This document shows, one piece after another, positions 1 to 52,433 of a stretch of 52,433 nt of DNA. Position numbers and translations under genes: made by a program. The notes under the pieces are model-generated. The model saw only the letters and a list, made by a program, of their open reading frames with translations, was not told the DNA's origin and made no database searches. Within the stretch, counting starts at the first letter, position 1, and each line of letters starts with the position of its first letter. The stretch comes from Escherichia virus TH23, in the sequence record MT446397.1; one strand, given 5' to 3'.

Positions 1-433
1 CGTGCTCTGATTGCCTTTGACCTTGACCCACTACCTAACTTGGTGTTGATTGAAAGCCGATAGGCTATAGGAAAAAGTTGGGGTAGGGACCGTATTTAAG
101 TCCGATAGGACGTTGGGCTTCCCCTCCTCGGAGATAAAATTTTAAAAATAATAATGACACAACTTCCCCCCCCCGCCACCTCAAAAATAAAATAATATCG
201 CCACAATTCTAGTCTCATTAATATTGAAACAATTCGAGTCTCATTAATTCCGTAGCAATATTTAAATTAAAAAAAAAATTATATAAAATTTTTATAACAT
301 AGTCGGGCTTCTGTTCGAACAAATTTCGGCTAGATACAGCTGACCGATTGTGAACGAGTCTATGTCCAGATACAGTTGACCGATCATTTACCATTTGGTT
401 TGAACTTTACGCATTCCTAATATTACTTTAAAT
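1..433. repeat. Direct terminal repeat, left copy (equals 52000..52433 except poly-C run of 9 vs 10)
   Basis: Window start cgtgctctgattgcc...tattactttaaat recurs at the window end; AT-rich, contains poly-C, poly-A and short internal direct repeats. True repeat may extend beyond the window edges. Confidence 0.85.
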
Positions 434-40586: not shown

Positions 40587-40858
40587 TCGCGAGTTGCAAT
40601 TTGCATGGACTTGTTTGGTCCGAGGTAGAAGTATTTCTTAACTTCCTCAAGTGTGTATTTAGCACTGCTTCCGAGTATGTCTTTGAAAGTGTGCTTCCAG
40701 AACCCATCTTTCTCCGAAATTCCTACGGTAAAGTCGTTGGTGCCGTTGTACCACCAACGTCCGCCAACCAGGACGAAGTGGATTGTTTCTTCCTCACCTG
40801 TGGGAGCTGTTGTTACATTTCTTAATGTCAAAACTTTAGCAGAATGCTTGCGAATCAT
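40547..40858 (-). CDS. Hypothetical protein (C-terminus ...YGVPF)
   Basis: 103-aa ORF with GGAGAG Shine-Dalgarno. Confidence 0.35.
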   Translation of the reverse strand: MIRKHSAKVLTLRNVTTAPTGEEETIHFVLVGGRWWYNGTNDFTVGISEKDGFWKHTFKDILGSSAKYTLEEVKKYFYLGPNKSMQIATREWTTNQPTYGVPF

Positions 40859-43690: not shown

Positions 43691-44037
43691 TTAACTTCCT
43701 TACAATAGGTTGATAACAATGGAAATTTGGCATGAAAGAAGTCAATGTCACGATAAATCTGTAGCACCAAACGTTCCTCAGCGTCAACACCAACTAAGGC
43801 CAGCTTACTGCTCTGTGTATTGTAGAACACTGTTGACATTGGATTAGGATTTCCATTATCTGGAATCTCAATCCATGTACCTTCGTGCAAAGAAATTGTT
43901 GCAATGAGTGGCTGGCTCATTGTAATTGTTTCAACGGACATTTTGTACCCGCCACACTGGAAGCTGCGAACAGATGCTTCTGATTTGAATGCGAATACTC
44001 CAAACAAAATTGTGAGTGCAATGTATAAAGTTTTCAT
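43687..44037 (-). CDS. Secreted/periplasmic small protein (signal peptide)
   Basis: 116 aa; MKTLYIALTILFGVFAFKSEA signal-peptide-like N-terminus. Confidence 0.35.
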   Translation of the reverse strand: MKTLYIALTILFGVFAFKSEASVRSFQCGGYKMSVETITMSQPLIATISLHEGTWIEIPDNGNPNPMSTVFYNTQSSKLALVGVDAEERLVLQIYRDIDFFHAKFPLLSTYCKEVK

Positions 44038-44092
44038 AAATGCTCCAGTGATAATTAATCGAGGCCACTCGAAGTGGAATGACCTCTGTTAA

Positions 44093-44995
44093 TTACAGCT
44101 TCTTAATAAGCTCTGCGGATTTGCTTGCGGCAACTTTCATTTCATCGCGTGCGGCTTTAGTGATTGATGCCTTGTCCACGCGAATATTGCAGTTGCCAAT
44201 TGCAATCTTGCCATCTGCTGTTGGTGCAAGCTGCTGTAAGTCAAGCATTTGCTCCAGCTTTTGCAGAAGAATACGCTGCGCTTCGATTGCATTTTGGATA
44301 TTTAAAGTTTCCATAACTGCTCTTACCTTTCTTGAAAATGTTCCGGTTAATGCGAGGCGTACTTGTAGACCTTTAACGTTTCCATAGTCTACATTTACTT
44401 TATTGGCTGGTGAATGTGGATGTTTGTACACGTTTGTTACAGTTGCCCAATTATTATTTACCCAAATAACATCACCAACTTCCACATCTTTTCCGAGAAC
44501 ATCTTCTTCATCGGATACTTTCTGCTTCTTAGATTCTTCTACAGGAAGGAATACTGGATTTATCTGATTAGGGAACTCAATTGTTGGTGAGTTTGACATT
44601 GGTCCTGGGTTAACAATATAAACAACCCTACTCTTAACAAAGTCGAAGTACCCTTTTTCGTGGTGCAGACGAACATCCGAGCCATAATCTTCTACGCGAG
44701 TAATGTAGAAGAAGTTCACACCGTAGCTCAGTGTTTCACCTGCTACAACCATACAAGCTTTTACTGGAGTAACCTTTGGCAACTCTTTATATGTACCAAT
44801 GTTACATAAAATTTCAACAGCCTGCATATTCTCCAGATTGAAGTATCCCTGTTTTGTGTGGTTTATTTGCACACTGTCTCTGAGTTGAATAACGTCAGCT
44901 ACAGGATATTCTTCTCCCTCATGAACTATTACATCACCTTTCTTAACCAGATTGGCTGGAATCTTTACAACCTTAATTCCCATGATATTCCTCAC
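44093..44995 (-). CDS. Hypothetical protein
   Basis: 300-aa ORF, largest early gene. Confidence 0.4.
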   Translation of the reverse strand: MRNIMGIKVVKIPANLVKKGDVIVHEGEEYPVADVIQLRDSVQINHTKQGYFNLENMQAVEILCNIGTYKELPKVTPVKACMVVAGETLSYGVNFFYITRVEDYGSDVRLHHEKGYFDFVKSRVVYIVNPGPMSNSPTIEFPNQINPVFLPVEESKKQKVSDEEDVLGKDVEVGDVIWVNNNWATVTNVYKHPHSPANKVNVDYGNVKGLQVRLALTGTFSRKVRAVMETLNIQNAIEAQRILLQKLEQMLDLQQLAPTADGKIAIGNCNIRVDKASITKAARDEMKVAASKSAELIKKL

Positions 44996-45105
44996 GCATT
45001 GCTGAACAGTGCTTACACACCCAAAAGGTTACATAATCGTTTTCATGCGAAATTTCCCAATTATGTAGCCCTATAAAACATAAAATTTTCATAGGGCATC
45101 TCCAA

Positions 45106-45483
45106 TTAGAATGGAATATCGTCGTCGAAGTCTTTCGGCTCGTTCGGATTGTAGTTACTGTTCTGCGTCTGTTGCTGAATAGGTGCTTGCTGTTGTGCAG
45201 CAGGTTGCTGGCGTTGCTGTTGCTGTTGAGCAGCAGCTTGAGGTTGAGCTTTGGCTTTAGCTTTCTCTTCACGCTTACGCATCATTTCATCAACTTGTTC
45301 TTGGGTCATGATGGTGAGTGCCAGCGAGGTAAATTCATTACCATTGGCTTGCTTGTTCCAACCAGACACCCAATACCAGATTCCGTCAACGTTAATACGT
45401 CCACGAACGTCAGGATGTTTTGGGTCTTTCTTAAAGCCATTGGAACCGATGATGCCAGTGTTTACGTCTGAATATTGTGCCAT
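45106..45483 (-). CDS. Small protein with Q/P/A-rich linker and C-terminal DFDDDIPF (SSB-tail protein; minimal SSB or SSB-tail decoy)
   Basis: 125 aa; last eight residues equal the E. coli SSB C-terminal peptide; N-terminal region about 70 aa (GRINVDGIWYWVSGW); conserved motif about 80 nt upstream. Confidence 0.5.
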   Translation of the reverse strand: MAQYSDVNTGIIGSNGFKKDPKHPDVRGRINVDGIWYWVSGWNKQANGNEFTSLALTIMTQEQVDEMMRKREEKAKAKAQPQAAAQQQQQRQQPAAQQQAPIQQQTQNSNYNPNEPKDFDDDIPF

Positions 45484-45554
45484 GATTAAGATTCTCTTAA
45501 GTTAATTTACGGTTTAAGTTTCAGCGACATTGCTAACCACGGAATAGCTTTGTC

Positions 45555-45572
45555 TCTCACATCCAACTAATG
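45555..45572 (-). promoter_or_regulatory. Conserved intergenic motif copy (candidate phage promoter)
   Basis: Minus strand CATTAGTTGGATGTGAGA, about 80 nt upstream of the SSB-tail gene start. Confidence 0.35.
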
Positions 45573-45731
45573 TTGAATTAATCAGGAACACTCAATGAAT
45601 GCTCCTTGTTAATTTAACGCGCCAGTTTATATTCCTGCTTGTAATAGCAGCAGGTTGGCAAAGCCTATAACAATCGTAATTATAACAACGCTAATAGTAA
45701 GTGTCAGTATTAGGTATTTAATATTCAATCC

Positions 45732-46019
45732 TCACATCACCTTCGATACAGGAATTGGGTCAATGTTTGATTCAGGTTTATACCAACTAACTTCACCAGA
45801 ATCTTTCACAAGTTCCCAATTATCGGAGAATGTACGATAGAGTAGAACATTGTTATCATCAATAACGACAAAACCCAAAGGAGATTGAATATACGCACCT
45901 AATGTACCACTGTTTCGAGGAACTCCGTCACCACGACCTGCGACGATTTTGTACTTCTTGCCTTTGGTAAAGCTGGAATTAGTTTCACCAACATATTTAA
46001 CGATTGAATTCTTGTTCAT
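45732..46019 (-). CDS. Hypothetical protein
   Basis: 95-aa ORF with GGAGAA Shine-Dalgarno. Confidence 0.35.
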   Translation of the reverse strand: MNKNSIVKYVGETNSSFTKGKKYKIVAGRGDGVPRNSGTLGAYIQSPLGFVVIDDNNVLLYRTFSDNWELVKDSGEVSWYKPESNIDPIPVSKVM

Positions 46020-46230
46020 TGCTCTAGTTTCTCCAAAGCTGCCAAAACTGAATCACCAGAACCGCTAATTACAAGCGACTCTCCTGGAAGATTGTAGGAT
46101 ATATAAGAGAACGTCCATTTTACAACAGTTCTCTGATATTAGGAGCTGTATTTATCAGACAGCTCTACATCTTGTCTTGCATCATTTAATAAGAACTCCT
46201 GTCCATTGACATTGAGTCTTTTAAACATTT

Positions 46231-46533
46231 CTATATAGTTCTTACCCACGGTTTCATCTTCTCCCATTTAGACAAACCACCTTCAAGACTAAAGATTCGG
46301 TTACAGCCAGATTCATCTTTAATGACAAATTGAGTTCCTGTCAGTTGAATTGGCTCAAGTGCGCCAAACAACACTTTAGGTTTTGACAAGCTGGTGGCAA
46401 GAACCACATAAACTTTGCTTGGGCAAATATCAAAAGCAAAGTCGCGAGTGTAAACTAAGTCACCAACTTTCAAATATGCTGGCAACAGGCGACCTGTGGC
46501 TGGGTCACGTTGTAAACGAGTACGTTGTTTCAT
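46231..46533 (-). CDS. Hypothetical protein
   Basis: 100-aa ORF. Confidence 0.35.
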   Translation of the reverse strand: MKQRTRLQRDPATGRLLPAYLKVGDLVYTRDFAFDICPSKVYVVLATSLSKPKVLFGALEPIQLTGTQFVIKDESGCNRIFSLEGGLSKWEKMKPWVRTI

Positions 46534-46596
46534 AAATGCTCCAAGTTAATTAATAATATTCAGCAACCACTCTCATTATAAGAATGGTTGAGGAAA

Positions 46597-46827
46597 TTAT
46601 TTGACTTCTTTCCAAGTCCAAACACTGCCGTTTAATGGGACACTTTCACCAATGCTCCAGTAGGGTCTGCCATTGGCAGCCACTCGGTCCCCAACATTCG
46701 AAACAATTATTCGAGGGTCGATTCCGTGTTTTCGCTGTTTGTGGATAAGTTCTCCTTCAATCACATCTCCAACTTTTGGAGTATGTTCGGATGAAGAAGA
46801 GGATTTTATACATACAAACTTTGTCAT
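46597..46827 (-). CDS. Hypothetical protein, paralog A (NG-x-W-T-W family)
   Basis: 76 aa; shares KF.C...VGD.IEGE.I...VP.NG..WTW with the adjacent gene. Confidence 0.35.
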   Translation of the reverse strand: MTKFVCIKSSSSSEHTPKVGDVIEGELIHKQRKHGIDPRIIVSNVGDRVAANGRPYWSIGESVPLNGSVWTWKEVK

Positions 46828-47051
46828 TGTAATACACCTTGTTCACAAATGTCTGCAAACTCTGCACGATGGTCACGCTGCCATGTCCAGAATGCACCAT
46901 TCATAGGAACGACAGCACCTTTACGAAATGCTGGAGAGAACTCCTCAGCAGATTTGGTAACTTTAAATTCCAAAGGTGAAATAGCTTCACCCTCAATGAT
47001 TAGGCCAACTGGAACGTAGTCTTTGTTGGAAGCAACACATTTAAATTTCAT
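46824..47051 (-). CDS. Hypothetical protein, paralog B (NG-x-W-T-W family)
   Basis: 75 aa; tandem with 46597..46827, stop/start overlap. Confidence 0.35.
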   Translation of the reverse strand: MKFKCVASNKDYVPVGLIIEGEAISPLEFKVTKSAEEFSPAFRKGAVVPMNGAFWTWQRDHRAEFADICEQGVLQ

Positions 47052-51999: not shown

Positions 52000-52433
52000 C
52001 GTGCTCTGATTGCCTTTGACCTTGACCCACTACCTAACTTGGTGTTGATTGAAAGCCGATAGGCTATAGGAAAAAGTTGGGGTAGGGACCGTATTTAAGT
52101 CCGATAGGACGTTGGGCTTCCCCTCCTCGGAGATAAAATTTTAAAAATAATAATGACACAACTTCCCCCCCCCCGCCACCTCAAAAATAAAATAATATCG
52201 CCACAATTCTAGTCTCATTAATATTGAAACAATTCGAGTCTCATTAATTCCGTAGCAATATTTAAATTAAAAAAAAAATTATATAAAATTTTTATAACAT
52301 AGTCGGGCTTCTGTTCGAACAAATTTCGGCTAGATACAGCTGACCGATTGTGAACGAGTCTATGTCCAGATACAGTTGACCGATCATTTACCATTTGGTT
52401 TGAACTTTACGCATTCCTAATATTACTTTAAAT
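52000..52433. repeat. Direct terminal repeat, right copy
   Basis: Matches 1..433 with one extra C in the poly-C run. Confidence 0.85.

Follow-up and report, generated by a model that had tools for sequence, protein, structure and literature searches.

The genome of Escherichia virus TH23 (sequence record MT446397.1; the whole stretch of 52,433 nucleotides was analyzed and is referred to here as the window) carries, on the minus strand at 45106..45483, a gene for a protein of 125 amino acids (aa) that joins a small N-terminal domain of an uncommon kind to the C-terminal tip of the Escherichia coli single-stranded DNA (ssDNA)-binding protein (SSB). Our analyses suggest that this protein is probably a real mini-SSB of a non-canonical type, which recruits SSB partners through its host-type tip. 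This reading builds on features that were observed directly: the architecture of the protein, the family-wide conservation of that architecture, the genomic contexts in which relatives are found and the lack of an oligonucleotide/oligosaccharide-binding (OB) fold.

The gene is an ATG-started open reading frame (ORF) of 125 codons, the product of which is MAQYSDVNTGIIGSNGFKKDPKHPDVRGRINVDGIWYWVSGWNKQANGNEFTSLALTIMTQEQVDEMMRKREEKAKAKAQPQAAAQQQQQRQQPAAQQQAPIQQQTQNSNYNPNEPKDFDDDIPF, with the C-terminal end ...NEPKDFDDDIPF*. An initial annotation, made from the letters alone, had described a 125-aa protein bearing the exact host SSB tip DFDDDIPF, and this description was accurate: the ORF is real, the translation matches as quoted and the last eight residues are those of E. 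coli SSB. From the N-terminus onwards, and always on the minus strand, the protein comprises a DUF736-like domain with four predicted beta strands (residues 1-60; 45304..45483), an amphipathic helix, QEQVDEMMRKREEKAKAKA (residues 61-79; 45247..45303), a Q/P/A-rich linker (residues 80-116; 45136..45246) and the acidic tip KDFDDDIPF, which is of the type found at the C-terminus of bacterial SSBs (SSB-Ct; residues 117-125; 45109..45135).

In a nucleotide comparison of the 3-kb stretch 44000..47000, TH23 did not differ from Escherichia phages TH28 and TH33 (100% identity), and ST32, MLP1 and further close relatives shared approximately 86-94% identity with it. These phages are myoviruses of the Chaseviridae (Cleopatravirinae, Carltongylesvirus), and they possess a T7-like enzyme set consisting of a single-subunit RNA polymerase, a primase-helicase, a family-A DNA polymerase, a 5'-3' exonuclease and a ligase. 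The 125-aa gene is the homologue of ST32 gp19, MLP1 gp40 and the 'putative SSB' of phiEcoM-GJ1; its N-terminal domain is 97-99% identical to those of ST32 and MLP1, and that of phiEcoM-GJ1 is identical. Homologues in relatives are already annotated as 'single-stranded DNA-binding protein', a label qualified in the ST32 RefSeq record by 'No experimental evidence', the functions in the ST32 paper having been given by BLASTp. In addition, the protein matched PHROG 7364, 'single strand DNA binding protein' (E = 8.2e-43, residues 1-91), and PHROG 18154 (E = 6.9e-17), families whose name is an annotation, given by name and not by assay. The existing SSB label of the homologues appears to rest on the tail.

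When E. coli SSB was compared with the window by tblastn, a single match was obtained, to the last 10 residues (45109..45138). Similarly, the PDB matches of a profile of 34 homologues were confined to the C-terminal 40 residues of SSBs from enterobacteria (7f2n_A, 2.3e-5; 1eqq_A, 5.5e-4). The tip is near invariant in these 34 homologues and invariant or nearly so across the Chaseviridae, and many relatives end in NEPPMDFDDDIPF, the sequence of the final 13 residues of E. coli SSB. Because the 8-mer is exact and the tail is kept in every homologue, the match is not due to chance. As in E. coli-type SSBs, D-D-D-I-P-F stands at the extreme C-terminus and follows a disordered linker. The earlier suggestion that this linker is Q/P/A-rich and resembles the disordered linker of SSB was confirmed, with Q, P and A making up 73% of residues 80-116 and an AlphaFold2 (AF2) pLDDT below 50 at residues 81-120, as predicted for an intrinsically disordered segment; both its length and its sequence differ among homologues.

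Identity with the host at the protein level might also be expected of a recent chimera, in which the phage took the 3' end of host ssb and the tip is a by-product of recombination. This explanation is scarcely credible, however, and the recent capture of ssb was rejected as effectively refuted: nucleotide similarity to E. coli ssb is insignificant (best 39-42 nt at 81% identity, E = 6), and the tip is kept across genera and throughout a huge family with unrelated linkers. The lack of nucleotide similarity indicates that the tip has been kept identical as protein sequence, rather than being left over from a recent capture. The tail of T7 gp2.5 can reportedly be swapped for that of E. coli SSB and is still tolerated; a host-type tip could thus also serve a T7-like replisome. 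At least 17 host partners dock on the SSB-Ct (PMC10018359). E. coli SSB also has interaction partners among phage annealing proteins, Red-beta being one (PMC6393309), and RecET systems have been selected with SSB-Ct compatibility as a guide (PMC13490951).

Some homologues (P0004 and P0020) and family members (P0161, P0166, P0169 and P0069) extend past the IPF tip. The extensions include APIGLQEGRRYLHCI, SAEFR, APEFR and AAHERGWVI, and P0069 runs on into a hydrophobic segment. As tip-binding pockets normally need a free carboxylate, such extensions would bury the group on which docking depends.

Domain family and genomic context

An exhaustive hidden Markov model search with the N-terminal domain profile retrieved 2,320 cluster representatives (clusters at 50% identity) at E <= 1e-3 and 141 at E <= 1e-10, mostly 70-170 aa in length. 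Among the top 149 representatives, 88 (59%) end in [IVLM]PF, 64 of these being IPF, and other members end in IPY, IPW or DPF; examples of the tips in the family are ...EDFADDIPF, ...DMDDDIPF and ...DLDDDLPF, and distant members of 80-100 aa retain D-D-x-IPF. Judged by these endings, an SSB-type tail travels with the domain family-wide. A false positive of the exhaustive search, P0053 (1,158 aa, 21 matched stretches), was set aside as a tandem-repeat artefact and not a relative; it is a perfect tandem repeat of approximately 52 aa, probably a translated satellite, which matched only via PGYWYSSW.

The sole Pfam family recurrently matched by the domains of relatives was DUF736 (PF05284), in 12 of 50 diverse relatives (best E = 5.8e-5), and several relatives are named 'DUF736 family' by JGI. 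The 125-aa protein itself gave no match to the DUF736 model even at E <= 10. Since the protein of the window is unmatched and the matches of its relatives are weak, the tie to DUF736 is that of a distant relative or superfamily and not one of membership. We know of no IPF tail in typical DUF736 proteins. Within the phage collection, the domain was present in 134 records, including those of Chaseviridae and of Vibrio, Acinetobacter, Klebsiella and Burkholderia phages, and plasmids yielded only two weak matches; this near-absence from plasmids implies that the tip-bearing family is essentially phage-borne. In the literature that we searched, no function was found for DUF736, no functional paper was found on DUF736, the 125-aa domain family or a Chaseviridae SSB, and no experiment or structure was found for the 125-aa architecture; the main survey of viral replication proteins and SSB classes omits the DUF736-like family (PMC4889955).

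The context of distant members was examined in four metagenomic contigs of temperate phages. Three of the four place the family member directly after an Erf/Rad52 annealing module, with overlapping stop and start codons: the gene order is Erf, YqaJ exonuclease and family member in contigs L006 and L009, and Rad52-like protein followed by family member in L007, the fourth contig being uninformative. In Vibrio phage QH (VP2/VP5/phiVC8 group) and Acinetobacter phage DMU1, the member adjoins the DNA polymerase gene (8710-9186 in L014 and 9373-9675 in L015, of the Vibrio QH/VP2/phiVC8 type and Acinetobacter DMU1). Phages of both kinds carry a PurZ-type adenylosuccinate synthetase (2-aminoadenine type), and the Vibrio version of the protein is a tandem two-domain form with the C-terminal end NEPPMDFDDDIPF. 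The replication regions of the QH-type phages and DMU1, over approximately 20 kb, contained no E. coli-type OB SSB, no protein of the family of a 299-aa, Phe-ended ORF product of the window (30852..31751; discussed below) and no other candidate. The neighborhoods of annealing-protein and polymerase genes are the normal sites of phage SSB genes, and genomic context is the strongest functional evidence for an SSB role of the family.

The tight linkage to Erf/Rad52-like and polymerase genes, with overlapping genes, might equally be that of an adaptor: the DUF736-like domain would bind one particular protein of the phage or a DNA structure (e.g., the annealing protein, the polymerase or a replication origin), and the tip would tether the resulting complex to host SSB partners, with no coating of ssDNA. 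The small size of the protein and the occurrence of a second SSB-style protein in the same phage would also suit an adaptor. Nevertheless, we consider it unlikely, given that the domain is conserved from one set of neighbors to the next (Erf, Rad52-like, PolA of two types), a pattern which a common ligand such as ssDNA fits better than a specific protein, and that the nearest fold analogues, described in the following section, are sequence-independent ssDNA binders.

Fold and proposed action of the N-terminal domain

AF2, run with a 34-sequence alignment and again on the isolated domain, returned the same topology each time, in which four antiparallel strands (residues 10-14, 26-32, 35-46 and 49-58; strand pLDDT approximately 85-94) are followed by the helix 61-79; the models vary slightly, the first strand beginning at residue 10 or 11 and the helix running from 61 to 75 or 79. 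This order of strands and helix is, as an AF2 prediction, that of the PC4-like topology (PC4/Sub1, the T5 PC4 homologue, YdbC, Whirly and Pur-alpha), and the helix of the predicted secondary structure is a possible dimerization helix, as in PC4-like proteins, with the four-stranded domain as the putative ssDNA-binding module. Conserved residues of the domain comprise G10, N15, K18, P24-D25, G28-R29, G34, W36-Y37-W38, W42 and S53-L54.

In the initial annotation, the N-terminal part had been regarded as too short for a canonical SSB fold, and an ordinary OB fold had been named as the finding that would count against its proposals. A shortened ordinary OB-fold SSB of the E. coli, T7 gp2.5 or N4 type would readily explain a tail and linker like those of bacterial SSBs, and OB folds are hard to detect from sequence (PMC4889955). 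However, the 125-aa protein had no Pfam match above threshold, SSB families included, and the NCBIfam SSB models fell far under their cut-offs (TIGR00621, 22 bits versus 54; PRK09010, 25 versus 260) while covering residues 40-125 only, an alignment that, to judge by its extent, is driven by the tail and leaves out the N-terminal domain. In hhalign comparisons, the 50-sequence family profile gave 0.3% with the OB domain of E. coli SSB, 0% with CspA and 0.1% with T7 gp2.5, and the protein thus shows neither the OB-fold core of E. coli-type SSBs (PF00436/TIGR00621) nor an OB fold of the T7 gp2.5 type. The predicted model, with its four strands and C-terminal helix, also differs from a five-stranded barrel.

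Searches of the PDB with the N-terminal domain, as a single sequence and as 22-sequence and 50-sequence profiles, gave no match; the best PDB sequence match, the Shiga toxin 2 B subunit, was at chance level (17 residues, E ~0.5) and was discarded. Among the matches listed in the fold and profile searches, there was neither an SSB nor a cold-shock protein nor any other OB protein of the canonical nucleic-acid-binding kind, and no canonical SSB OB domain was detected anywhere in the window or in four relatives. An ordinary OB fold, looked for by structure prediction, by two fold searches on the predicted model and by profile comparison, was not found, and a shortened SSB of this kind is very improbable. 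In this respect, the initial annotation was borne out: a canonical SSB domain is lacking, and the OB fold that would have counted against its proposals did not appear.

The best structural and profile matches were PC4-like ssDNA binders, every one of them below significance. The top two Foldseek matches were MoSub1 structures (E 0.26-0.4, TM ~0.35), and hhalign aligned the family profile with human PC4 (the query was checked and is identical to 1pcf) at a probability of 39.6-52.7% (P = 1.4e-4), shuffled PC4 controls (n = 30) reaching at most 6.6%. In this alignment, family residues 24-55 fall on PC4 strands 2-4, and Y37-W38 falls on PC4 Y88-W89, of which W89 is the DNA-stacking residue. As these lines of similarity, each insignificant alone, agree with one another, a PC4-like fold is plausible for the modeled domain, the similarity to the PC4-like group (the T5 PC4 homologue, PDB 4bg7, and PC4/Sub1/YdbC/BPSL1147) being sub-threshold throughout. 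To our knowledge, PC4-like proteins do not bear a bacterial SSB-Ct tip of the DDDIPF type. PC4-like folds occur as dimeric and tandem versions (PMC7549692), and the tandem two-domain members of the 125-aa family, in which both domains precede the tail, are a suggestive parallel to this arrangement.

In the mechanism that we propose for a mini-SSB, the sheet of residues 1-60 and the helix 61-79 would bind ssDNA as a dimer in a PC4-like manner, with a conserved aromatic and basic face (W36, Y37, W38, W42, K18 and R29) making the contact, and the disordered linker 80-116 would project the host-type tip. The protein coating phage ssDNA would consequently display this tip, and the proteins that normally dock on SSB would be recruited; these may be host enzymes (e.g., Exo I, RecQ, PriA, pol III chi, RecO and RNase HI), phage annealing and replisome proteins, or both. 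It is ssDNA binding, dimerization and the identity of the partners that we infer in this scheme.

Several points weigh against such a scheme. The domain is near neutral in charge, with 6 K+R versus 5 D+E. PC4-like dimers need the helix, which is conserved in the Chaseviridae-type subfamily and, in the alignments, is lacking in many distant members of the family and in the tandem Vibrio form. GenBank notes read 'no experimental evidence', and ssDNA binding is an inferred property in all members. Finally, the 299-aa protein of the replisome cassette, which has an SSB-style tail, could be the replicative SSB, in which case an accessory role would be left for the 125-aa protein.

Two functions had been put forward in the initial annotation, that of a minimal SSB with an unusual fold and that of a decoy titrating host SSB-binding enzymes. 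The former is favored by a tip-bearing family that is not of the OB type and by contexts in SSB position; the latter did not find support. As a decoy, the protein would not bind ssDNA, and abundant free SSB-Ct tips would fill the pockets of the partners (Exo I, RecQ, PriA, chi, RecO, UNG and others), shutting off repair or restart in the host or the attack of nucleases on phage DNA, with the folded domain serving only for oligomerization and avidity. If true, this would constitute a host-takeover mechanism aimed at the SSB hub. It would agree with an identity to the host tail that reaches well past the minimal hexapeptide, many relatives having NEPPMDFDDDIPF, with the small, near-neutral domain and its putative ssDNA binding, and with the presence of a further candidate SSB in the replisome cassette. 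However, proteins with this domain and tip occupy the SSB slot beside annealing proteins, and the same slot beside polymerases where the fetched replication regions hold no other SSB candidate; many aromatic residues (W36, Y37, W38 and W42) lie on the conserved surface, as they do in ssDNA binders; and a domain conserved over 2,320 clusters would be needless in a decoy. We therefore hold a decoy to be rather improbable and retain the mini-SSB as the favored reading.

Other Phe-ended proteins and the surrounding region

Three further proteins had been noted as ending in PF-type tips, and all three tips were found on the minus strand where they had been placed: NGMPF at the end of the 299-aa ORF (30852..31751), EEAPVF at the end of a 112-aa protein (39122..39460) and YGVPF at the end of a 103-aa protein (40547..40858). 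The accompanying proposal that such tips exceed chance was only partly upheld. In a greedy set of 82 ORFs, three PF endings were counted versus 0.13 expected, which gives P = 3.5e-4 if PF is specified beforehand; in permutations, however, some dipeptide reaches three occurrences in 61% of cases, and the PF count alone is weak for this reason. The conservation of the tips among homologous sequences is the stronger evidence.

The 299-aa ORF, the product of which is likely 287 aa from an ATG at 31715 and has an Ala/Gln-rich C-terminal linker, sits between the DNA polymerase and 5'-3' exonuclease genes. Its tail in Escherichia, Pectobacterium, Proteus and Erwinia phages has the form xPF (GMPF, DMPF, GQPF or VIPF); 85 of 120 homologues end in PF, and the more distant ones have acidic tails with PY, PW, EW or DW. 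The family model NF046043 of NCBIfam, 'phage replication initiation protein, NGO0469 family', was matched in 36 of 36 homologues, and the cassette of primase-helicase, PolA, 299-aa family gene and exonuclease is kept in distant contigs (family gene at 8001-8726 in L012 and at 8001-8657 in L013). Matches to the protein were found in 170 phage records, and it is 'hypothetical' in all 45 of the records listed. A gp2.5-like or N4-like SSB was tried and rejected as an identity for this protein (hhalign 0.2% and 0.1%, respectively, and a profile without a PDB match), and DUF669 was matched in 1 of the 36 homologues (0.0046). Position and tail make the 299-aa protein a candidate for an unrecognized replicative SSB or replisome factor.

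In the 112-aa protein (PHROG 17419), the N-terminal domain is conserved and the tail is acidic and A/E/V-rich, and an acidic Phe-ended tail is kept in five Chaseviridae genera (APVF, QPMF, QPLF and EAIF). The 103-aa protein is the weakest of the three possibly related proteins, its tip being kept in the 35%-identical ST32 homologue and absent in Erwinia phage Y2. The idea of a shared docking code was accordingly borne out in part: the PF end of the 299-aa protein and the acidic Phe tail of the 112-aa protein hold across genera, whereas YGVPF of the 103-aa protein is confined to close relatives. From these tail sequences, a common docking pocket for Phe tails is a reasonable idea. A more far-reaching view, which we put forward as doubtful, is that the DUF736-like domain represents a widespread, structurally distinct and PC4-resembling class of bacterial-virus SSBs without an OB fold, and that in Chaseviridae three or four Phe-ended tails (those of the 125-aa, 299-aa, 112-aa and perhaps 103-aa proteins) compete for the same pockets on host SSB partners and/or the phage polymerase, forming a hub that would plug the replisome into the host SSB interactome and starve host SSB.

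The RNA polymerase gene is situated on one side of the mini-SSB gene and the replication genes on the other, and early expression of the mini-SSB is plausible from this position. An 18-nt promoter-like motif, AACATTAGTTGGATGTGA, is located at 45557..45574 (minus strand), 74 nt upstream of the ATG of the mini-SSB. Seven copies of AACATTAGTTGGATGTGA occur in the window versus 0.08 expected, all on the coding strand (minus), only within 39.5-52 kb and all upstream of genes in the early/middle region (39538, 41495, 41635, 45557, 48799, 49650 and 51961); two of the other copies precede the 112-aa gene (by 78 nt) and the RNA polymerase gene (by 64 nt). By its distribution in the sequence, AACATTAGTTGGATGTGA is probably a promoter. 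The pattern of the motif loosely recalls SP6 and T7-type promoters. Two other upstream candidates were dismissed: a sigma-70-like promoter at 45707..45679 agrees at 11 of 12 positions and, not being conserved in ST32 or MLP1, was given no weight, and the conserved AAATTAACTTAAGAGA directly upstream of the mini-SSB ATG is not a repeated motif.

Downstream of the mini-SSB gene, a 39-aa ORF, MKILCFIGLHNWEISHENDYVTFWVCKHCSAMREEYHGN (44973..45092, minus strand), starts 14 nt past the SSB stop codon with a GGAG Shine-Dalgarno sequence; its Cys and His residues show zinc-ribbon-like spacing, and it is conserved yet unannotated in ST32 and MLP1. A hairpin, GCCCTAT..ATAGGGC (45068..45097), overlaps the start of this ORF. 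At the ends of the window, the ORFs 218..394 and 52218..52394 (minus strand), the first and last of the greedy list, both end in ...ATELMRLELFQY, which suggests a direct terminal repeat or a circularly permuted wrap-around of the window.

Comparison with known SSB systems

If the domain binds ssDNA, this large family would represent a further structural solution for SSB function, and DUF736-like domains would gain a testable function. Proteins of 80-125 aa also offer a small natural system for examining how an SSB-Ct tip borne on a linker organizes the recruitment of partners, and the location of mini-SSBs next to Erf and Rad52-type annealing proteins makes them relevant to recombineering. Phage SSBs trigger the Retron-Eco8, Hachiman and DARNA defenses (PMC13402713; 10.1101/2022.08.27.505566; 10.64898/2026.02.22.705581), and an SSB without an OB fold might evade or trigger phage-defense systems differently.

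With E. coli-type SSBs, the 125-aa protein shares the common modular plan of a DNA-binding core, a disordered linker and an acidic tip ...DFDDDIPF; in place of the OB-fold core of approximately 112 aa for tetramerization and DNA binding, however, it has an unrelated domain of approximately 60 aa. T7 gp2.5 likewise serves as the SSB in a phage equipped with a single-subunit RNA polymerase, a primase-helicase and a PolA replisome, and it too has an acidic Phe-ended tail and a promoter of its own immediately ahead of the gene, whereas gp2.5 is a 232-aa OB-fold protein with a DEDGDF-like tail rather than the host sequence. The N4 SSB/DUF669 group, in which acidic tails and the lack of any other SSB set a precedent for giving a DUF family the SSB role (PMC4889955, Kazlauskas et al. 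2016), comprises an unrelated protein of approximately 265 aa, thought to have a diverged OB fold, and is relevant, if at all, to the 299-aa protein.

Phage SSBs with host-type tips are ordinary, and homologues of the gene described here have been labeled as SSBs before. What is out of the ordinary, as judged from the predicted structure, is that a small, DUF736-related, PC4-like module takes the place of the DNA-binding core in a very large family.

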